A stretch of 32,000 nt of DNA, from the NCBI GenBank assembly GCA_016700135.1, contig CP065004.1:1416137-1448136 (forward strand), in the 5' to 3' direction. The notes below the pieces were generated by a model, which was given only the letters and a program-made list of their open reading frames with translations, made no database searches and had not been told where the DNA came from. How positions within the stretch are numbered: position 1 is the stretch's first letter; the number at the start of each line of letters is the position of its first letter. Source of the DNA: Candidatus Saccharimonadota bacterium. GTDB taxonomy: Bacteria; Patescibacteriota; Microgenomatia; UBA1406; GWC2-37-13. Shown one piece after another: positions 4,222-21,880 of this stretch. A program made the position numbers and the translations under genes.

Positions 4222-5508
4222 CTACAACGTGAATCTGTCATAGTTTTTCATCACCAGCTGAGATTCGATCTTCTTGAACGTTTCAAGAACAACAGACACT
4301 ACGATAAGGATTCCCGTTCCTCCGATAATCAAATTCTGAAGTCCTGTCACGGAAGACATAATAGCCGGAAGGATTGCGATAAGTCCTAAGAATACCGCAC
4401 CGAATGTCGTAATTTTATATACAACACTCTGCAGATAGTGTTTGGTCGCCGATCCTGGGCGAATACCGGGGATAAATCCTCCGTGCTTCTGGATTTCTTC
4501 AGCTATTTTTTCCGGATTGAAGACGATGATAGTGTAGAAGAATGTAAAGGCAACGACAAGTATGAAATACACTGAGTTATACAAAACGCCGTCTGGAGTG
4601 AATGAAGTTGCTAATGCCGTCCCGATATTTGCCAGTGTCTGGTTCGGGACATAGCGCACGAAATTACCGATAATCTGCGGGAAGAGAACAAAGGATACCG
4701 CAAAGATGATCGGAATAACCCCTGCCTGATTCAGCTTCAGGGGCAAAAAGTTTGTCGCTCCCTGATACATTTTATTTCCCTTAATACGCCTTGCATAATA
4801 TACGGGGATCTTGCGGACCGCTTCGTTGATAAATACAACAGCCGCAATAACCACAAGCGTCAGCGCCAAAAAGATTATGATATTGAGTGCAATTTCTGAA
4901 TTGAATGTGGTGATTGTCCTTCCGATAAGTACAGGAATACGTCCGACGATACCGGCAAAAATAAGAATTGAGATTCCGTTTCCGAGTCCGAATTCCGTGA
5001 GAAGTTCACCAAGCCAGACCAAAATAAAAGTACCGGCAAGAAGCGTCAGTACGAAAGAGAAAAACTCGATCGGCGACAACACATCAATAATCTGCTGATT
5101 TCTCAGAAGCACATAAATACCGACTGCCTGAACAAGAGTAAGCGGAACAGTCAGAAATCTCGTGTATTGATTTATCTTGAATCGCCCGTACTCTCCCTCT
5201 TTTGATAAAGCTTCAAGTTGCGGCACGACCATGGTAACAAGCTGCATAATAATGGAGGCATTAATGTATGGAGAAAGTCCTAAAGCCATAACTGAGAAAT
5301 TGACTAAGGTGCCTCCTGAAAAAATATCAAGGAGTGAAAGAAACTGACTTTGCTCAAAGAGTGCCTGCAGTCTTGAAAGGTCAATCGCAGGTACCGGAAG
5401 GTACGCAAATATTCGGAAAATAAGAATGATGAGAAATGTGATTCCTGTCTTTCGTCTCAAAGCAGGATCTTTTATGAGTGATTGAAATTTTTGAGCTATA
5501 TCTTTCAT
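4222..5508 (-). CDS. secY: preprotein translocase subunit SecY
   Basis: 428-aa multi-pass membrane ORF with SecY motifs ([26 protein letters not shown]). It overlaps the rplO stop by 4 nt. Confidence 0.96.
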
Positions 5509-5945
5509 TGAACCTTTCCGCCAGCCTTTTCAATTTGTTCACGAGCAGACTGCGAAACTGGTAATGAGACAGTTATAGCATTTTCAATTGACCCATTAGC
5601 AACCACTTTCACTCCGCGCTGTGTATCAGCTGACTCGATGATGCCCTTTTCAACAAGTGCATTCATATCTACTGTAGCTCCTTTTTCAAAGATATTCAAG
5701 TGTGTAAGTGTAAGTAATACCGGTTTCATTCCTACCGGCTTGTTTCGGCCTTTTCCTCGAAGAAGAGGGAAACGTTTCACCATGCGGTTTTGACCTCCTT
5801 CAAAGTGAAGAGGCATTTTGGTGCGGGCGGTCTGATGACGTGTGGTACCGCGGCCTGATTTAGCACCGGCTTTCGAACCCAATCCGCGTCCGAGTCGTTT
5901 TTTCCCTTTTTCTGTAATTTTCGGTAATTCTGTTAGATTTTTCAT
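5505..5945 (-). CDS. rplO: 50S ribosomal protein L15
   Basis: 146-aa ORF with [23 protein letters not shown] and [13 protein letters not shown]. Confidence 0.95.
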
Positions 5946-7019: not shown

Positions 7020-7069
7020 TAATTTCTGATAGCTATAAGCTAAAAGCTATTAACTGACTTATGCTGCCT
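7020..7069 (-). repeat. ribosomal-operon spacer element, copy 1 (rplF-rplR spacer plus last codons of rplF)
   Basis: On the plus strand, TAATTTCTGATAGCTATAAGCTA ... TTATGCTGCCT. It matches 22 of 23 nt and then 11 of 11 nt of copy 3. It contains the mini-hairpin TAGCT-ATA-AGCTA. Confidence 0.75.
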
Positions 7070-7601
7070 TTGCCTTCTTTCCCGGTTTGACACGGACGTG
7101 TTCGCCTTCATAACGAATACCTTTTCCTTTGTATGCGTCAGGTTTCTTTACTGATTTGATCTGATGGGCTACTTCTCCGACAAGCTGTTTATCGATTCCG
7201 GAGATAATAATAATATTGTTTCCCTCCATCGAAAGCTGGATTCCTTCCGGCGCCTTAAAAATTACAGGATGCGAAAGTCCGAGTTTCAGATTCAGATCCC
7301 GTCCCTGCATTTTACCGTTAAAACCGGTTCCGACTATCTCAAGTCTCTTTGACCATCCCTGATCTACGCCTTTCACTGCATTTGCAATGATACTGCGATA
7401 AAGACCGTGAGAAGCTTTCTGTCTTTTTGCTTCTGATTTTCTTTCAATATACAGTGTGTTTTCTTCGTTTCGGATACTCAAAAAATGAGGGAGTTCAAAA
7501 GATAAATTTCCTTTTGATCCTTTTACCTGAACAACCTGACCTTGAATATCAACTTGTACAGAACTCGGTATCTGAATTGGACTTTGGCCTATTTTAGACA
7601 T
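7059..7601 (-). CDS. rplF: 50S ribosomal protein L6
   Basis: 180-aa ORF. It has the MSKIGQSPIQIP N-terminus, two L6 repeats, and a C-terminal GKGIRYEGEHVRVKPGK. Confidence 0.95.
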   Translation of the reverse strand: MSKIGQSPIQIPSSVQVDIQGQVVQVKGSKGNLSFELPHFLSIRNEENTLYIERKSEAKRQKASHGLYRSIIANAVKGVDQGWSKRLEIVGTGFNGKMQGRDLNLKLGLSHPVIFKAPEGIQLSMEGNNIIIISGIDKQLVGEVAHQIKSVKKPDAYKGKGIRYEGEHVRVKPGKKAKAA

Positions 7602-8020: not shown

Positions 8021-8050
8021 TAATTGCTATAAGCTAACAGCTAACTGCTG
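8021..8050 (-). repeat. ribosomal-operon spacer element, copy 2 (rpsS-rpsH spacer, more diverged)
   Basis: TAATTGCTATAAGCTAACAGCTAACTGCTG shares the GCTATAAGCTA core. AATTTC also occurs at 7995..8000 in the same spacer. Confidence 0.55.
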
Positions 8051-8055
8051 ATACA

Positions 8056-8340
8056 TTAGGTCTTATCTGCCGTTCTCTTGGTAACCTTTCCGTGACCTCT
8101 AAAGGTGCGGGTCGGTGAAAATTCTCCCAGTCTGTGTCCGACCATTCCTTCTGAAACAAAGACTTCAATAAATTTTTTCCCGTTATGAACAGCTATTCTG
8201 TGTCCGACAAAGTCAGGATGGATCTGACAGGAACGTGCCCATGTCTGGATCGGTCTTCTCTCACCGGATTCTTTTTGTTTTAGAACTTTTTGATGCAATT
8301 TTTCATCAATATATGGTCCTTTTTTTGCTGAACGAGTCAT
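8056..8340 (-). CDS. rpsS: 30S ribosomal protein S19 (non-canonical position between rpsN and rpsH)
   Basis: 94-aa [18 protein letters not shown]...[51 protein letters not shown] is an unmistakable S19 sequence. Confidence 0.95.
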
Positions 8341-8344
8341 AGTG

Positions 8345-8530
8345 TTACCAAGAAACTTTTTTAACTCCGGGAATTTCTCCTTTTAATGCTTTTTCTCTAA
8401 AGCAAAGACGACACAGTCCGAATCTTCGGATATAACTTCGTGATCTTCCGCATACCGGACAACGATTCACATGTCTTACTGCGTATTTCTGCTTTCGCTG
8501 AAATTTTACTTCATCTGATGTTTTTGCCAT
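8345..8530 (-). CDS. rpsN: 30S ribosomal protein S14 type Z (zinc-binding)
   Basis: 61-aa ORF with CPVCGR...CRLC cysteine pairs, ending in GVKKVSW. Confidence 0.95.
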
Positions 8531-8544
8531 AGAGAAAAATAAAT

Positions 8545-9084
8545 TTATTTACTAAAGGGTATCCCCATTAACTCAAATAATTTTTTGCCTTGTTCACGAT
8601 TTTTGGTACTGGTGACGACTGTCACTTCAAGACCGCGCAATTTGTCAACTTTATCGTACTCAATTTCAGGGAAAATCGTCTGCTCTGTAAATCCGAGATT
8701 CAAATTTCCGTGCTGATCAACAGCTGATTCAGGAATACCTCGGAAATCACGAAGACGCGGAAGTACGATTGCCGTCAGCTTCTCAAGGAAAGAATACATC
8801 TTCTTACCTCTCAAAGTCACTTTGACTCCGATAGCCAATCCCTTTCGGATTTTGTAAGCAGAAATGGACTTTCTTGCTTTAGTAACAACTGTTTTCTGTC
8901 CGGTGATTTGTTCAATCTGTTCCTGAATTTTTTCAATAACTTTCTTATTCACCACAGCTTCTCCTGCACCGACATTGACGACGGTTTTGAGCACTGTAGG
9001 GACTGCAAAATCGTTTTCGATTTTGTACTCTTTTTTGAGTGCCGGTTTTATTTCTTTATTATATCTTTCTTTCAGTCCTGCCAT
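8545..9084 (-). CDS. rplE: 50S ribosomal protein L5
   Basis: 179-aa ORF with [32 protein letters not shown] and [10 protein letters not shown]. Confidence 0.95.
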
Positions 9085-12637: not shown

Positions 12638-12680
12638 TAATTTCTAATAGCTATAAGCTATTAGCTAATTTATGCTGCCT
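12638..12680 (-). repeat. ribosomal-operon spacer element, copy 3 (rplW-rplB spacer plus last codons of rplW)
   Basis: TAATTTCTAATAGCTATAAGCTATTAGCTAATTTATGCTGCCT, with the 7-bp hairpin AATAGCT-ATA-AGCTATT. Confidence 0.75.
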
Positions 12681-12960
12681 GTGGAAATAAATCAATTGAT
12701 CCTTCCGACAGCTTGACGTACGCAATTTTGATATCGGCACGTTTCTTTGTCATCATTTTCTTTCCGACTCTTTTTTCTTTTCCTTTTCGGATTGCAATAC
12801 GGACACTTTCGACTGTTACTTTAAACAACTCTTCTACAGTCTGCGCAACCTGATGCTTATTAGCCTGTGTGTTCACCTCAAACTGATACACTTTATTTTG
12901 TGCCAGCTGCGTGGATTTCTCCGTTACCAGAGGTCGGCTTAAAATATTAGTTATTTTCAT
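12670..12960 (-). CDS. rplW: 50S ribosomal protein L23
   Basis: 96-aa ORF with ILSRPLVTEKS and YQFEVNTQANKHQV. It overlaps the end of rplD by 14 nt. Confidence 0.94.
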   Translation of the reverse strand: MKITNILSRPLVTEKSTQLAQNKVYQFEVNTQANKHQVAQTVEELFKVTVESVRIAIRKGKEKRVGKKMMTKKRADIKIAYVKLSEGSIDLFPQAA

Positions 12961-16336: not shown

Positions 16337-17419
16337 TCAAGAGAATGTATGAGTTCCATACATATGGCACTCTTTAGGTAAAATAGATAATAGGTAATCC
16401 ATAGGTGAAATATTGTTCAGGCTTTTGTGAACTCGCTTTGTATTGTACCAGACGAGGTATTCAATAAGGTGACGATTGAATGATCCGATACCGGTCCACT
16501 TGGTATAGATGTAGGGGTTCATAAATTCTTCCTGGAGTGTTCTGTTTGCTCGCTCAATAAAGGCATTGATCTTGGGACATCTGGGGTAGATAAAGAGGTG
16601 TGGGATATTGTTTTCTTCCAGATAGTCATGGAAGTTTCCCAGATACTCGAGGCCGTTATCTGTTTGTATGGTTTTTATACCATCTTGTATTGGGTATACT
16701 AGTTCCAGTCTTCTCATAAAATCAGCACCGTTTCGGCTGTTGAGTTTTGAGTATCCGTAGGAGAACTGGAATTTGAGTTTGATGTCCACTGCATTGAAGA
16801 CATACAGCTTGATTCCGTGTACAAACTTCGTGATGGTATCAATCTCAATGTATCCGGTATCTTCCACCTTGGGAGACCGCTTGACCTTCTGTCGGTACTT
16901 TACTTTCCGTTTTGCAAAGCCACTTGCTGGATTGTGATAGATCCGGTAGGTCTTGCGCTGCAGGTTGTGTCTTTTGATCACTTTTCCAATGGTTGACTCA
17001 GATATAGTTGAAATTCCTTCCTGTAGGCAATACTCATCAAGTAAGGGCTTGATCTTCTCCTTTCCCAAACAAAAGTATTGTTCTCGAATCTCTTTGATAA
17101 AGGATATGACCTTCGGGTGAGTCTCCATACGTCGGGGTGTCTTTGGCTTGGTTGTCTCTGGTATCAGGCTATCCAACTGCCCTTCTGAATCTCGCCGTCT
17201 CTTCCTCCATCGAAACAATGTCCTTCGTGATATCCCATATGCATCAACTGCAGCTTGTATCCCGTACTTCTCTGCAAATGTCAGAACATCGTTTCTGATT
17301 TGTGCTACATCTGACTGATTGTAGTCTGATAGAGATCGTATCTTTTTCATAAGATCTCTATTGTACTGCCAGTCATAACTCCTAATTACTCGAAGCTGAT
17401 CTCCTCCCCATTTACTCAT
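16337..17419 (-). CDS. DDE transposase with integrase-core (rve) fold, IS481/IS3-like
   Basis: 360-aa ORF with an N-terminal HTH (ISRRTLFRWRKRR). The catalytic triad contexts are YIEIDT, IQTDNGLEY and INAFIERANRTLQEEF (DD35E spacing), followed by a C-terminal YNTKRVHKSL. The ORF 3' end runs through the proposed left inverted repeat. Confidence 0.88.
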   Translation of the reverse strand: MSKWGGDQLRVIRSYDWQYNRDLMKKIRSLSDYNQSDVAQIRNDVLTFAEKYGIQAAVDAYGISRRTLFRWRKRRRDSEGQLDSLIPETTKPKTPRRMETHPKVISFIKEIREQYFCLGKEKIKPLLDEYCLQEGISTISESTIGKVIKRHNLQRKTYRIYHNPASGFAKRKVKYRQKVKRSPKVEDTGYIEIDTITKFVHGIKLYVFNAVDIKLKFQFSYGYSKLNSRNGADFMRRLELVYPIQDGIKTIQTDNGLEYLGNFHDYLEENNIPHLFIYPRCPKINAFIERANRTLQEEFMNPYIYTKWTGIGSFNRHLIEYLVWYNTKRVHKSLNNISPMDYLLSILPKECHMYGTHTFS

Positions 17420-17447
17420 AGATGTTAGTTCCCTATGAGTGCCATAT
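16362..17447 (-). mobile_element. IS481-like insertion sequence (boundaries tentative)
   Basis: Single rve/DDE transposase ORF. Inverted repeats ATATGGCACTC (16362..16372) and GAGTGCCATAT (17437..17447) continue imperfectly inward (TTTAGG versus ATAGG). No clear target-site duplication was seen. Confidence 0.55.
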
Positions 17448-17532
17448 CTTTCGTAACTTATTCAGAGAAAAATGAATCCTTTTTAATATATGTATATATA
17501 AAGAGGGTCTGTATTTATCCGAACTCTAGTGC

Positions 17533-17547: not shown

Positions 17548-20500
17548 ATGGCAACCGACTCGGTAAAACTGAATACATCGCAACAGCAGGCTGTCGAATA
17601 CCACAAAGGACCGCTTCTTATTGTGGCCGGAGCCGGTACCGGCAAAACGACTACACTCGTCGAAAAAATCAAGTATCTCATCAAGAATGACCATGCAAAG
17701 CCTGAGGAAATTCTTTGCCTGACTTTCACCGACAAAGCGGCCTATGAAATGGAAGAACGTGTAGACCGTGCCATGCCGTACGGATATTTTCAGATGTGGA
17801 TCTCGACATTTCACAAGTTTGCAGACGAAATCCTGCGCGACGATATTTATCATCTCGGACTTAATCCAGGTTATGATCTGATGACTCAGGCACAGTCAAT
17901 CCTCTTTCTCAAAAAAAATCTCTTTCACCTCAATCTCAAATACTACCGTCCTGTCAGCAATCCCACAAAATTTGTCGAAGGGCTGCTGCAGCATTTCTCC
18001 AGGCTTCATGATGAAGATATTTCTCCTGAGGAGTATAGTAAGTGGGTAAAAAAACTTTCGAAATATTCTCATTCCGTCCGCCGGCTGGCGGATGATCCGG
18101 AATCCAGGAACAAAAAAACTGGATCCCTGGTCATGCCTGGGATGACAACGGAACAAAATATAAGCACTGAAGAAATCCAGCAATACCAGGAACTTTCCGA
18201 TGCATACGCTACCTATCAAAAGCTCAAAATCGAACATGACGTCATGGATTTTGACGATCTTATTTATTATCTGATCAAACTTTTCCGGGAAAGACCGAAT
18301 GTTTTAAAGCAGTATCAAAACAAATTTAAGTATGTATTGGTTGACGAATTCCAGGATACGAATATCGCACAGTACGAACTCATAAAGCTCCTCTGTCCCA
18401 TAAAAACCAATCCGAATTTGACCGTCGTCGGAGATGATTCTCAGGCAATCTATAAATTCCGCGGAGCATCTGTCTCCAACATTATGACCTTCATGGAGGA
18501 CTATCCGCAGGCAAAGCAGATAAGTCTTGTAGATAATTACCGATCCAATCAAACCATACTTGATCATGCCTATAATCTCATCCAAAACAATAATCCCGAT
18601 ACCCTTGAAAGTAAATTGGGTATCTCAAAAGAGCTGGTCGGACATAAAAAAAATATAAAAGAAGCCGTACAGTTTGAGTTGTTTGCACACGGTGATCAGG
18701 AAGCGGATTGGATTGCAGAGTGTATCGCCGGTTACTTGCAGGATAAAACCTATACCTTCCAGGATTTTGCAATTTTGGTAAGAGCGAACAATCACAGCGA
18801 TCCGATCATCAATGCCTTGAAGCGTGAAGGTATTCCCTTTCAGTTTTTAGGGCCGGGAACGTTATTTAAGCAACCTGAGGTCAAAGATCTGATCGCTTAT
18901 CTGCAAGTTCTCGCTGATCTGAATGATACAGTTTCACTATACCGCGTTCTTTCCATGGATCATTTCGGAATTGATGAACAGGACCTGGTTCTCTATCTCT
19001 CCTTTGCGAAAAAAATTTCCCTTTCTCTTTTCCAGTCACTTGAAGTGGCACTTTCCTTTTTCCATGAAGATTGGTGGAGAGAGGAGTTTGAAGTTTATCG
19101 CGAACATTTACCGCTCGTAAAAGAAGAAACAAAAGAGAAACTAATCCAGATAATCTCCATGATAAAAAAGCATCTCACCCGACTCCGCAAGGATTCAGCC
19201 GGTGAGATCGTGTTCCAGTTCCTGGAAGATACCGAATACCTCAAGAAACTCAGCAATCCTGAAAATGAGTATGATCAGCGAAGAACATTGAACATAACGA
19301 AGTTTTTCCAGAAACTAAAAAGTATGGAGAATGAAATTGAAGACAGTTCGGTTTTTGCCGCAGTCGAGTATATCAATATGAGTCTGGAGATGGGTGAATC
19401 TCCTTTGGCATCCGAGTCTGATGCGGTTCAGACGAATGCTGTAAATATTCTCACGGTGCACGGTGCAAAAGGTTTGGAGTTTCCTGTCGTTTTTCTCCCG
19501 AATCTTATAAACGGCCGTTTTCCTACCCGCCGCAGACGGGAACAGATTCCGATACCTGATGCTCTGATAAAGGAGACAATGCCGAGCGGAGATTATCATA
19601 TTCAGGAAGAAAGGCGGCTGTTTTATGTGGGGATCACCCGTGCAAAAGACAGGCTCTTTTTGTCCGCTTCTGAAATATACGGTGAAGGAGTACGGAAACA
19701 ACGCATATCGCCGTTTGTAGCCGAAACAATCGGTGCCGAAAAAGTCACCGGCAAATCCGCAAAGCAATCCGAACAAAAAGAACAGCTATCCATTTTTGAT
19801 TTTAAGAAAAAGGAAGAAGATCCTCCGATACCAATCCCGACCGAGGTTAAAAATCTTTCATACAGCCAGATCAGTACCTATGAACTCTGTCCCCTGAAAT
19901 ACAAATATCAGTACGTACTGAAAATCCCGACAGGACCCCACGGTGCGGCTTCATTCGGAAGCTCTGTGCACAACGCTCTGCAGAAGTTCTATCAGTTGTT
20001 TACGAAAGACAATGAAGTCGGGCTCACACATCTTCTGAATCTGCTTGAATCTTCCTGGATCCCGGTCGGCTATACCTCCCGGGAGGAACAGACGAAACAA
20101 AAAGAAGAAGCACGTCAGATGCTCGAAAACTATTTTCATTCTTTTCATACTCCTGAGATTGCAGTCAAAGATCTGGAGAAACTCTTCAAAATCAAAGTAG
20201 GAAGTGATGTATGTCTTACCGGAAAAATTGATCGGGTGGATGAAAAGGCTGACGGAGCGATCGAGATCATCGACTACAAAACCGGCAACATGCCTGATGA
20301 AAAGAAACTCAGGAAAGATATGCAGCTTGCCATATATGCAATGGCTGCAAATGACTACGGATTGTATCGCAAACCGATTGAAAAAATTAACCTTTCCTTC
20401 TACTATCTCGCCCATCGTGAAAAGGTAACGGTTACAAGAAACGAAGAAGATATTCACGATGTGAAGCTGAAAGTCAGAGAGATTGCTGATAAAATCCGCA

Positions 20501-20577
20501 TGGGAGAGTTCCCGGCACGTACCGGTCCGTGGTGTGCACGGTGTGATTTCAGAATGATCTGCGAAGCCTGGCAGTGA
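17548..20577 (+). CDS. UvrD/PcrA-family superfamily-1 helicase fused to a C-terminal PD-(D/E)XK (Cas4/AddB-like, 4-Cys) nuclease
   Basis: The ORF track starts at a GTG at 17539, and the first ATG is at 17548. It has Walker A GAGTGKTT, motif II VDEFQDT, TVHGAKGLEF and VGITRAK. The C-terminus has CPLKYKYQY, GKIDRVDE, EIIDYKTG and CARCDFRMIC, which gives one plus three Cys as in Fe-S nucleases. Confidence 0.9.
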   Translation: MATDSVKLNTSQQQAVEYHKGPLLIVAGAGTGKTTTLVEKIKYLIKNDHAKPEEILCLTFTDKAAYEMEERVDRAMPYGYFQMWISTFHKFADEILRDDIYHLGLNPGYDLMTQAQSILFLKKNLFHLNLKYYRPVSNPTKFVEGLLQHFSRLHDEDISPEEYSKWVKKLSKYSHSVRRLADDPESRNKKTGSLVMPGMTTEQNISTEEIQQYQELSDAYATYQKLKIEHDVMDFDDLIYYLIKLFRERPNVLKQYQNKFKYVLVDEFQDTNIAQYELIKLLCPIKTNPNLTVVGDDSQAIYKFRGASVSNIMTFMEDYPQAKQISLVDNYRSNQTILDHAYNLIQNNNPDTLESKLGISKELVGHKKNIKEAVQFELFAHGDQEADWIAECIAGYLQDKTYTFQDFAILVRANNHSDPIINALKREGIPFQFLGPGTLFKQPEVKDLIAYLQVLADLNDTVSLYRVLSMDHFGIDEQDLVLYLSFAKKISLSLFQSLEVALSFFHEDWWREEFEVYREHLPLVKEETKEKLIQIISMIKKHLTRLRKDSAGEIVFQFLEDTEYLKKLSNPENEYDQRRTLNITKFFQKLKSMENEIEDSSVFAAVEYINMSLEMGESPLASESDAVQTNAVNILTVHGAKGLEFPVVFLPNLINGRFPTRRRREQIPIPDALIKETMPSGDYHIQEERRLFYVGITRAKDRLFLSASEIYGEGVRKQRISPFVAETIGAEKVTGKSAKQSEQKEQLSIFDFKKKEEDPPIPIPTEVKNLSYSQISTYELCPLKYKYQYVLKIPTGPHGAASFGSSVHNALQKFYQLFTKDNEVGLTHLLNLLESSWIPVGYTSREEQTKQKEEARQMLENYFHSFHTPEIAVKDLEKLFKIKVGSDVCLTGKIDRVDEKADGAIEIIDYKTGNMPDEKKLRKDMQLAIYAMAANDYGLYRKPIEKINLSFYYLAHREKVTVTRNEEDIHDVKLKVREIADKIRMGEFPARTGPWCARCDFRMICEAWQ
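18069..18107 (+). repeat. expanded hairpin-repeat copy F inside the helicase CDS
   Basis: The sequence is TCATTCCG-TCCGCC-GGCT-GGCGGA-TGAT-CCGGAATCCAG. Its ends match the family ends (TCATYCC ... GGAATCCAG). The outer stem is ATTCCG/CGGAAT, with a nested 6-bp stem TCCGCC/GGCGGA. Confidence 0.6.
18119..18146 (-). repeat. 28-nt hairpin-repeat copy E inside the helicase CDS
   Basis: The reverse complement is GTCATCCCAGGCATGACCAGGGATCCAG. It matches copy D at 26 of 28 positions and has one stem mismatch. Confidence 0.85.
20055..20089 (-). repeat. possible degenerate hairpin-repeat copy G inside the helicase nuclease domain
   Basis: CTGGATCCCGG is an exact 11-mer match to the reverse complement of copy A. 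A stem TCCCGG/CCGGGA with a 13-nt loop follows, then GGAAC. It may instead be native coding sequence. Confidence 0.3.
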
Positions 20578-20612
20578 AAGTAATAATGAGTGTTACGCAA
20601 ACGTACTTCGTT

Positions 20613-20640
20613 GTCATCCCGGACTTGATCCGGGATCCAG
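20613..20640 (+). repeat. 28-nt hairpin-repeat copy A
   Basis: GTCATCCCGGACTTGATCCGGGATCCAG, with 8-bp stem ATCCCGGA/TCCGGGAT and loop CTTGA. Confidence 0.9.
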
Positions 20641-20655: not shown

Positions 20656-20679
20656 TGAGCCAAAGGCTCATCGTTTTTT
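20656..20679 (+). terminator. intrinsic terminator candidate after the helicase gene
   Basis: TGAGCC-AAA-GGCTCA followed by TCGTTTTTT on the plus strand. Confidence 0.55.
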
Positions 20680-20688
20680 GGACGGGTT

Positions 20689-21408
20689 TCAGGATCTTCT
20701 ATACCTCAACACTACTTCATCATCCAGTTTCTCGACATTCAGAAGTTCAAACTGAGGCACTGCATCGGAAGGGAACAAAATTCCTTCAGTCATCGTGAGA
20801 GTTTTTCCCGGTAGCGATCCGAAGATCTTCGGTGCAATTGTGAGATGGACTTCGTCGAGTACATTCTCTTGAAGTAACTGCGCGATCAGTGTCGGGCCGC
20901 CGTCAATGAATACGTTTTGATGACCTTTTGAGTTGAGATAACGGATAAGATCTGCAATCTGTACATGCCCTGCGCCTTCTGTGACCTTTTCAACATTAAA
21001 TGCCTGACTTACTTCACCGGTAATTTCTGTAGATGAATTCGTCAAAATCGTCGGTTTATATCCGTGATCGTTTGCAAGTTTCGATGCCAACTCTTCATCA
21101 GGGGAGGTTGTCAGAATGATAAACTCAGGAACACCTTCTTTGCCGATCTCTTTCCTGAATCCCTGATACATCTCATCATTGATCGTACGGATCGTGTATT
21201 TTCCGAATTGCATCGCGGTATTTTTTGCATCCACGATCGCATCGGCATGAGCTCTCAGATAGGTAAAATATTCGTAATCCTTTTTTGATCCGATCGGCCA
21301 GTATCCTTTCTCTTTTACGATAATCTTCCCGTCGATACTCGATACAAAACTGGTGAACATATACGGCCGGTTTGCGGGTTTTTGAAAATCAAATGGTTGA
21401 CGTGTCAT
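20689..21408 (-). CDS. RibD C-terminal-domain / dihydrofolate-reductase-like reductase
   Basis: The ORF track extends to 21480, but that N-terminal extension (..SVIPGLTWEP..) is a translation of repeat copy C. The ATG at 21408 gives MTRQPFDF... The body has FVSSIDGKI and FIDGGPTLIAQLLQENVLDEVHLTIAPKIFG, typical of the RibD_C/DHFR-like family. Confidence 0.8.
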   Translation of the reverse strand: MTRQPFDFQKPANRPYMFTSFVSSIDGKIIVKEKGYWPIGSKKDYEYFTYLRAHADAIVDAKNTAMQFGKYTIRTINDEMYQGFRKEIGKEGVPEFIILTTSPDEELASKLANDHGYKPTILTNSSTEITGEVSQAFNVEKVTEGAGHVQIADLIRYLNSKGHQNVFIDGGPTLIAQLLQENVLDEVHLTIAPKIFGSLPGKTLTMTEGILFPSDAVPQFELLNVEKLDDEVVLRYRRS

Positions 21409-21419
21409 GTTGTTTTTTA

Positions 21420-21447
21420 CTGGTTCCCAGGTCAAGCCTGGGATAAC
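21420..21447 (-). repeat. 28-nt hairpin-repeat copy C
   Basis: The reverse complement is GTTATCCCAGGCTTGACCTGGGAACCAG. It lies 11 nt upstream of the reductase ATG. Confidence 0.85.
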
Positions 21448-21475
21448 AGACAAGTAAATTAAATATATTATAACT

Positions 21476-21503
21476 GTCATCCTGAACTTGATTCAGGATC
21501 CAG
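21476..21503 (+). repeat. 28-nt hairpin-repeat copy B
   Basis: GTCATCCTGAACTTGATTCAGGATCCAG, with a perfect 8-bp stem. It lies 2 nt beyond the GIY-YIG stop codon. Confidence 0.9.
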
Positions 21504-21505
21504 TT

Positions 21506-21796
21506 TTATTTTATCATTTCTTTATAAAGATCATTCCATTGCGGATTTTTCGACTCGATTAGCTCTAATTTCCAGGCTCTTTTCCAAGCTTTTAACTGTT
21601 TTTCACGCCTTAAAGCTCGATTTACATCATTAAATACTTCATAATAAACGAGAATATGTACGTTATACTGAGCAGTAAATCCTTTCACTATTTTATTTCT
21701 ATGTTCCCAAGTACGTTTAATCAGATCAGAAGTAACTCCAATATAAAGTGTTCCGTTGCGTTGACTTGCCAATATGTATACAAAATATGTTCCCAT
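21506..21796 (-). CDS. small stand-alone GIY-YIG nuclease-domain protein (COG2827 / UPF0213 type)
   Basis: The ORF track extends to 21838, but the extra MHCHPRLDLGSSTI is a translation of repeat copy D. The ATG at 21796 gives MGTYFVYILASQRNGTLYIGVTSDLIKRTWEHRNK..GFTAQYNVHILVYYE...REKQLKAWKRAWKLELIE..NPQWNDL, the classic GIY-YIG short-form pattern (96 aa). Confidence 0.88.
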   Translation of the reverse strand: MGTYFVYILASQRNGTLYIGVTSDLIKRTWEHRNKIVKGFTAQYNVHILVYYEVFNDVNRALRREKQLKAWKRAWKLELIESKNPQWNDLYKEMIK

Positions 21797-21803
21797 TATT
21801 GTG

Positions 21804-21831
21804 CTGGATCCCAGGTCAAGCCTGGGATGAC
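21804..21831 (-). repeat. 28-nt hairpin-repeat copy D
   Basis: The reverse complement is GTCATCCCAGGCTTGACCTGGGATCCAG, with a perfect 8-bp stem. It lies 7 nt upstream of the GIY-YIG ATG. Confidence 0.9.
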
Positions 21832-21880
21832 AATGCACCTGTAAAGAATTTCAAGCGGATTATAAACATTAACTTCTCCC

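Follow-up and report, generated by a model that had tools for sequence, protein, structure and literature searches.

Genes and repeats at the locus

The subject of this analysis is a small nuclease gene and the hairpin repeats around it, found in a 32,000-nucleotide stretch of contig CP065004.1 (called the window below) from a member of Candidatus Roizmanbacteria, a group of the candidate phyla radiation (CPR). The gene is a coding sequence (CDS) for a GIY-YIG protein of 96 amino acids on the minus strand (21506-21796), seen both in the sequence itself and in a list of its open reading frames (ORFs). It is called ssn here, after the family discussed below. Its neighbours on the same strand encode a folC-like ligase, a Vut_1/YhhQ protein and a RibD_C protein, and a helicase gene is convergent to them. 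The ssn gene sits inside a chromosomal operon, not in an intron or a phage. An initial annotation of this DNA had placed it between yhhQ and a reductase gene in a same-strand operon, and the Pfam matches to Vut_1/YhhQ and RibD_C support that placement.

Two repeats of 28 nt bracket the gene. Copy B (GTCATCCTGAACTTGATTCAGGATCCAG; plus strand, 21476-21503) lies 2 nt beyond the ssn stop codon and is antisense to the gene, and copy D (minus strand, 21804-21831; reverse complement GTCATCCCAGGCTTGACCTGGGATCCAG) lies 7 nt ahead of the ssn ATG and is sense with it. The two copies are mutually inverted and bound a unit of 356 nt. The 96-aa GIY-YIG gene, both spacings and the inverted 28-mers had already been described in the initial annotation, and they hold to the base.

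The repeat pattern GTYATCCNNNNCWTGANNNNGGWWCCAG occurs exactly five times in the window, where dinucleotide shuffles give an expectation of 0.05 matches and at least five copies in 0 of 100 cases. The five 28-nt copies fall within 3.7 kb of one another, for which uniformly placed copies would give a p of about 8e-4; with a 40-nt variant as sixth element, all six lie within 3.8 kb. This agrees with the earlier statement that solitary or paired copies lie within 3.7 kb, including one inside a CDS, which is the helicase copy. When folded as single-stranded DNA (ssDNA), the repeats form an 8-bp stem with a 5-nt loop (CTTGA). The folding energy is about -8 kcal/mol, with z-scores of -3.2 to -4.2, except in the degenerate helicase copy (-4.4 kcal/mol). 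Stem differences among the window copies are compensatory. The form GTC-ATCC....GGAT-CCAG is common to four of the 28-nt copies. The one that deviates is copy A (minus strand, 21420-21447), a degenerate repeat with GTT for GTC and AACCAG for ATCCAG; it lies 11 nt ahead of the probable start of ribD_C (21406-21408), and because of the position of this start it is intergenic and not coding.

The Ssn/SRM system and the window protein

A nuclease family that acts on hairpin repeats of this type has recently been described. Chenal et al. (2025, Nat Commun 16:2388; PMC11893778) define the Ssn family as single-domain GIY-YIG ssDNA endonucleases that bind NTS/SRM hairpins. The Neisseria Transformation Sequence (NTS) is a 28-nt repeat, CGTCATTCCCGCGMAVGCGGGAATCYRG, and its divergent relatives are called Ssn-related motifs, or SRMs (PMC11893778). 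Across phyla these repeats flank ssnA, a 94-aa single-domain GIY-YIG gene (cd10448), with at least one SRM nearby in 71% of homologs and SRMs on both sides in 42% (PMC11893778). SsnA binds the NTS solely as ssDNA and in one orientation, and its cut falls a few nucleotides upstream; double-stranded DNA (dsDNA) and RNA are not acted upon. Cutting depends most on the three bases upstream of the palindrome, and binding most on the C after the palindrome (PMC11893778). Three further homologs, including a distant one from Wolbachia, act like SsnA, and in N. meningitidis SsnA lowers transformation by NTS-bearing DNA (PMC11893778). In their discussion, the authors liken NTS-ssnA-NTS to an insertion sequence (IS) and draw parallels to REP/RAYT and IS200/IS605 (PMC11893778). 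The initial annotation was not aware of a described mechanism linking this nuclease family to such repeats. The connection of nuclease and hairpin had in fact been published in 2025, together with the layout of repeat, gene and repeat and the analogies to REP/RAYT and IS200/IS605, and the locus is a further example of them; what is new here is the Candidatus Roizmanbacteria (CPR) host and a distinct repeat variant.

The window protein is very probably an Ssn nuclease, a site-specific ssDNA endonuclease with GIY-YIG as its single domain, and by analogy it would share the biochemical mode of an Ssn/SRM module. It matches PF01541 (GIY-YIG, Pfam) over residues 4-77 (E=1.5e-15) and has no second domain. 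As comparison sequence we used the N. gonorrhoeae SsnA ortholog (L114:1489-1773, 94 aa), which stands in for N. meningitidis SsnA, the biochemically characterised enzyme; the ortholog carries Y6, Y17 and E64, the residues mutated in published SsnA. The two proteins are 59% identical over 90 aa with zero gaps (E=6e-40 pairwise, and 9e-29 in a tblastn search against a plasmid collection), and both E-values satisfy the E < 1e-10 that Chenal et al. applied to homology with Neisseria SsnA. Residues Y7, Y18 and E65 of the window protein align with SsnA Y6, Y17 and E64 and are invariant across 25 homologs. The AF2 model shows one compact GIY-YIG fold (pLDDT 94.6), and the solved folds nearest to it are UPF0213 BH0048, Slx1 and UvrC-N. 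A PDB sequence search with the window protein gave zero matches, so that no Ssn structure is found there by sequence, and scans of NCBIfam, PADLOC and PHROGs gave nothing specific, only sub-threshold homing-endonuclease matches; the TIGR01453 score was 17.8 bits against a cut-off of 56. A search of a protein database with the window protein returned thousands of homologs. Just 13 viral contigs carry a relative, with SRMs in 3 of the 13, which gives no support for a phage origin. The ratio of nonsynonymous to synonymous divergence (dN/dS) of ssn is 0.15-0.36, which argues for a functional gene.

Gene and repeats alike resemble the Ssn/NTS system closely. Both systems have a single-domain GIY-YIG protein of about 95 aa with equal catalytic Tyr/Tyr/Glu spacing, and hairpins of 27-28 nt that stand on both sides of the gene, are clustered nearby and share the flanks GTCAT...ATCCAG. 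Stem and loop differ: the window repeats have the 5-nt loop CTTGA and the stems ATCCNNNN, and they are very probably the cognate SRMs of the window protein, as a variant of the Neisseria NTS with this loop. They retain the experimentally important positions, GTC directly 5' and C directly 3' of the palindrome, and agree with the definition of an oriented hairpin of 20-50 nt with these two conserved elements. The window host also sets the locus apart, Candidatus Roizmanbacteria being unmentioned in the published work (PMC11893778), as do copies lying in frame inside genes, compared with only 2% of NTS in N. meningitidis that are intragenic (PMC11893778). The supposition of the initial annotation that the nuclease recognises the hairpin has held up well. 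Judged from the 59% identity and the key repeat positions that are kept, the window enzyme almost certainly recognises the hairpin repeat.

As for the reference locus, the tblastn search of the plasmid collection found two N. gonorrhoeae records with an ssn ortholog, of which L114 was used. These PLSDB 'plasmid' records (NZ_CP119142.1, with L114 at 1880219-1883488, and NZ_CP119140.1) are 2.17 Mb in length, which is far above any plasmid size. The ssnA ortholog has ATT at the expected start codon and an out-of-frame ATG nearby, and ten NTS copies surround it within 3.3 kb.

Association of gene and repeats across phyla

The association was followed in 80 homolog loci (57-70% identity) taken with 5-kb flanks from a scan of species-representative genomes, and spanning Patescibacteria, Pseudomonadota, Planctomycetota, Chloroflexota, Nitrospirota and others. 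Repeats were located with a hairpin-aware finder, because the published search string recovers only one of the five window copies. Compared with the rest of the flanks, the 100 nt next to the gene are 27-fold enriched in SRM-like hairpins, with 76 observed where 2.8 would be expected. Of 37 upstream copies 31 are sense (p=4e-5), which makes copy D typical in both position and orientation, and of 39 downstream copies 29 are antisense like copy B (p=3e-3). The string used by Chenal et al., HGTCWYN(0-2)YYVSBRHN(0-5)WNVSBRGN(0-2)RNCYNB, was built by hand on the basis of 29 genomes and serves as an aid for searching rather than a definition. It occurs on at least one side in 72% of the 80 loci and on both sides in 45%, which reproduces the published figures, and the exact Neisseria NTS consensus has matches in 25 of the loci.

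For the covariation test, repeats were defined by their flanks only, because circularity had to be avoided. This search gave 199 matches in 828 kb. Within the 28-nt class so defined, 98.8% of stem cells are paired and five of the eight stem pairs show compensatory changes, levels of pairing and covariation that were equalled in 0 of 500 shuffles. In the opposite direction, about 70 kb of syntenic or related loci that lack ssn hold zero SRMs. The initial annotation had allowed that gene and repeats might be neighbours by coincidence, and three observations speak against this: the enrichment beside GIY-YIG genes over the 80 loci, the relatives, which carry the gene together with repeats, and the ssn-less syntenic loci, which carry no repeats.

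Ssn proteins are 57-70% identical between very distant phyla (L005-L084), which is unusually conserved for such a spread and is consistent with frequent horizontal transfer. One locus stands out in a metagenome-assembled genome (MAG) labelled Actinomycetota (L008:1801-1828), where the 28-mer is the same as copy B but lies 44 nt after an ssn homolog of only 65% identity; either horizontal transfer or faulty binning could account for it. Another MAG, from Ignavibacteria (L015), has tandem arrays at 8072-8608 and 5288-5698, with a 69-nt unit (7.8 copies) and, beside ssn, a 156-nt unit. The 69-nt unit is made up of an SRM and a second palindrome, GGGCGCATAGTTATGCGCCC, and forms a BIME-like mosaic. 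Its regular 69-nt spacing led to CRISPR being considered, and this was ruled out, as the 'spacers' are identical.

Filled and empty sites, and the age of the cassette

The same cassette is found at the same place in four relatives. L001 (GCA_002329205.1), L002, L085 and L086 have the order folC-yhhQ-[SRM-ssn-SRM]-ribD_C-helicase, and the copy B 28-mer is identical in all of these, as it is in L008. Three more distant relatives (L087, L088 and L089, with YhhQ 81-73% identical) have yhhQ directly beside ribD_C, with spacers of 14, 157 and 188 nt, respectively, that contain neither ssn nor an SRM; the spacers of L088 and L089 consist of unrelated sequence. This comparison shows that the cassette entered the space between yhhQ and ribD_C in a single sub-lineage of Roizmanbacteria. 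What the empty-site relatives lack is the segment of 472 nt between the yhhQ stop and the ribD_C start (minus strand, 21409-21880), which exceeds the repeat-bounded unit of 356 nt and has edges that do not coincide with the SRM ends. No target-site duplication was found at the cassette, and outside the repeat only a pyrimidine at -1 is conserved.

Not all repeats at the locus are of the same age. Copy A is present in L001 and L002 and absent from L085 and L086, and repeats were therefore added after the arrival of the cassette. Comparison also shows that further SRMs accumulated around the cassette, including in-frame intragenic copies.

When the window is aligned with L001, nucleotide identity stands at 60-84% in folC and yhhQ, rises to 93-99% from about 21860 to 21400, and then falls gradually inside ribD_C (90, 87, 84 and 65%). 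Synonymous divergence (pS) from L001 is 0.07 for ssn, as against 0.72 for yhhQ, 0.80 for folC and 0.54 for ribD_C; from L085 it is 0.45 for ssn and 0.66-0.70 for the neighbours. Because of the jump in identity and the low pS, the cassette is much younger than its neighbours, or more recently exchanged or homogenised, with about ten-fold lower synonymous divergence. A young cassette fits horizontal spread by recombination; self-mobility does not follow from it. Against L001 and L002 there are two islands of high identity (93-100%), at about 21330-21860 and 20320-20560. The second is a zero-mismatch tract shared with L001 and not with L002, and only about 50 nt separate its end from the SRM at 20613. 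To judge from these alignments, the pattern suggests that the islands are recent recombination tracts associated with SRMs.

Repeat pairs inside coding genes, and a paralog

Repeats of this family also lie within genes. The helicase gene encodes a UvrD/PD-(D/E)XK helicase and holds one 28-nt SRM in frame (minus strand, 18119-18146), with a stem weakened by two substitutions. Together with a 40-nt SRM-like element (plus strand, 18068-18107) and an 11-nt spacer it forms an inverted pair of about 79 nt. The long element has an outer stem of the NTS type, ATTCCG/CGGAAT, and the inner palindrome TCCGCCGGCTGGCGGA. The whole pair is in frame, the 28-nt copy encoding ..GSLVMPGMTT..; it is present in the window, L001 and L002 and absent from L087, where the helicase is 19 residues shorter at this position. 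A pair of equal architecture and about 80% identity lies in frame in ribD_C of L001 and L002 (L001:10828-10893) and not in the ribD_C of the window. The helicase and ribD_C pairs are translated in one and the same frame, and the ends of the pair, TGTCAT...ATGACA, resemble those of the ssn cassette. The SRM pair looks like a miniature cassette without the gene. An estimate of the share of SRMs inside genes, made from long open frames in the 80 loci, was unreliable and was dropped, because G+C-rich genomes give long spurious frames and repeat arrays themselves create frames.

The host genome has a second ssn paralog (P0081; L004:2787-3142, L115:5966-6321), whose product is 69% identical to the window protein. 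It is bracketed by SRMs of its own at the same spacings as the window gene, and this arrangement is repeated in a relative. The stems differ, with ATTCC around the paralog and ATCC around the window gene; the 40-nt helicase element is of the ATTCC type. The two paralogous enzymes may have separate specificities, and the window gene and its paralog, with repeats of different stems, are well suited for asking how so small a protein (96 aa) recognises its hairpin.

Mechanism and alternative explanations

Taken together with the published biochemistry, these observations outline how the module could work. The repeat would extrude its 8-bp hairpin in DNA that has become single-stranded, as happens in replication, repair or DNA uptake. 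Ssn would bind the hairpin of just one strand, recognising its stem and the C directly 3' of it, and would hydrolyse the strand a few nucleotides 5' of GTC. Since the flanking copies are inverted with their GTC ends outward, the geometry and the published cut site predict cuts just outside the unit, one per strand. The weakest step is the cellular role, which could be to modulate the recombination of SRM-bearing ssDNA. By analogy to transformation in N. meningitidis, the window Ssn probably does so.

It is worth noting that several points weigh against this reading. The role in transformation was shown in Neisseria only and is extrapolated to the window host. Around N. gonorrhoeae ssnA the SRM orientation is opposite to the common pattern, so the layout is not rigid. 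The low pS of ssn comes from a gene of 96 codons compared among four sequences. Finally, the published string matches only one window copy, the SRM between the convergent helicase and ribD_C genes (plus strand, 20613-20640; string match 20612-20640), as its sole strict match, and the others fail at stem-composition positions. The four copies escape because of their CTTGA loop and ATCCNNNN stems, and the poor recall is treated here as a limit of the hand-built string.

One alternative is that the hairpins are transcription terminators or RNA-stability elements that lie beside a GIY-YIG gene by coincidence. They are indeed stable, G+C-rich and intergenic, and in a terminator scan copy B was terminator-like on the plus strand. 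The genes are on the minus strand, however, and there no SRM scored; a separate terminator-like hairpin with a T-run (20656-20670) is distinct from the SRM at 20613-20640. Nor would terminators be expected to have conserved unpaired flanks (GTC and CCAG) that orient the element, copies in frame within coding sequences, a 27-fold enrichment with an orientation bias over 80 loci, or a complete absence from loci without ssn. SsnA does not bind RNA (PMC11893778), and an Rfam scan of the window found no family matching the repeats. The explanation is hardly credible and is effectively refuted by the cross-phylum association.

Two further explanations give the cassette a life of its own. According to the first, SRM-ssn-SRM is an autonomous transposable element in which Ssn has the part of the transposase. 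The 79-nt SRM pairs would then be its non-autonomous derivatives, like miniature inverted-repeat transposable elements. The cassette has inverted terminal repeats with GTC ends outward, the IS analogy has been raised by Chenal et al. (PMC11893778), and the conservation of Ssn across far phyla suggests horizontal transfer. The empty sites in L087-L089 can be read in the same way, as can the like-built SRM pairs in two genes, with an insertion in ribD_C that is polymorphic between close relatives. Against this stand the missing target-site duplication, the lack of any conserved target other than the -1 pyrimidine, the insert that is longer than the unit and does not end at the SRMs, and the confinement of the cassette to one locus within the clade. 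The recognisable repeats are also on opposite strands, unlike IS200/IS605 ends. To our knowledge, GIY-YIG enzymes hydrolyse DNA without a covalent intermediate and have no known strand-transfer activity; for all the appeal of the layout, an autonomous transposon is quite improbable. The second explanation, a selfish element that behaves like a homing gene, has somewhat better prospects, although it too is unlikely. Here, cuts by Ssn near SRMs would stimulate recombinational repair, by which alleles in the population that are divergent or have no cassette would acquire it along with the markers beside it. The flanks of the cassette are far older than the cassette itself (pS 0.54-0.80, against 0.07), the gradual decay of identity into ribD_C resembles a co-conversion tract, the second zero-mismatch tract ends close to an SRM, and GIY-YIG is the catalytic domain of classical homing endonucleases. 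But ordinary homologous recombination after DNA uptake gives the same pattern, the comparison covers four sequences only, and the 96-aa protein has no DNA-binding domain of the homing-endonuclease type. Ssn, moreover, cuts ssDNA beside existing repeats and not empty dsDNA alleles (PMC11893778).

Mobility of the cassette is nevertheless plausible. A broader idea, tentative and on balance doubtful, though a little less so than homing as such, is that the cassette and the 79-nt SRM pairs are actively spreading selfish elements, which would proliferate through ssDNA cuts by Ssn and host repair and would set the ends of recombination tracts. If true, this would be a hydrolytic, non-HUH route to the proliferation of REP-like repeats, and an in-frame invasion of genes in reduced CPR genomes. 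Whether and how repeats and cassette spread was left open by the published work (PMC11893778). For studying this, the present clade has filled as well as empty sites at one locus, a cassette whose synonymous sites make it about ten-fold younger than the genes around it, and a polymorphic intragenic pair.

Comparison with other repeat systems

REP/BIME-RAYT systems likewise have a small nuclease gene between inverted hairpin repeats that are also scattered or clustered elsewhere, and tandem mosaics such as those of L015 add to the likeness. The enzymes differ, that of the window being a hydrolytic GIY-YIG protein, by its sole Pfam match and its fold, and not an HUH/Y1 transposase. The cut-and-rejoin chemistry of RAYTs is inapplicable to Ssn because there is no covalent intermediate. 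With IS200/IS605 TnpA, Ssn has in common that imperfect hairpins in ssDNA are recognised and cleavage occurs at a short distance; IS200/IS605 has its hairpin ends on one strand and an HUH enzyme, whereas the window has repeats on opposite strands and a GIY-YIG enzyme. GIY-YIG homing endonucleases such as I-TevI and I-BmoI share the catalytic domain and a possible selfish spread with co-conversion. They differ in that the window protein is without a C-terminal DNA-binding domain and its gene is not in an intron or phage, and in the substrate, which is ssDNA by the repeat for Ssn and the intron-less dsDNA allele for the homing enzymes. Rickettsia palindromic elements (RPEs) are also short palindromic repeats that lie in frame in genes and are tolerated as extra peptide; compared by description only, they are longer, at about 100-150 bp. 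As Rickettsia is among the SRM-rich genera (PMC11893778), a link between SRMs and RPEs is possible.

The combination of a minimal GIY-YIG nuclease and a dedicated hairpin repeat is by now an established system, of biotechnological interest as a sequence-specific ssDNA cutter. To this the locus adds a CPR member, whose repeats are a distinct variant in loop and stem.

Other features of the window

A promoter scan of the window gave no more sites than shuffled sequence. The Rfam scan also gave one sub-threshold match, at 19578-19676 within the helicase CDS and unrelated to the repeats, to RF03531 (39 bits, gathering score 65). This family is a small RNA annotated inside a Clostridioides helicase gene, and conservation of the helicase coding sequence is the probable cause of the match. 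An IS481-like transposase ORF (rve_3, HTH_23; 16337-17419) separates tuf from the helicase gene and lies about 0.65 kb from the nearest SRM. The region of about 16346-17463 has no counterpart in L001, where the helicase gene adjoins tuf, and it is therefore an insertion polymorphism. Another repeat, CTATAAGCTA..AGCTATTA..TTATGCTGCC, is present at 7033-7072, 8027-8066 and 12644-12683 with 65-83% identity between copies, which occupy intergenic spots of the ribosomal-protein operon.

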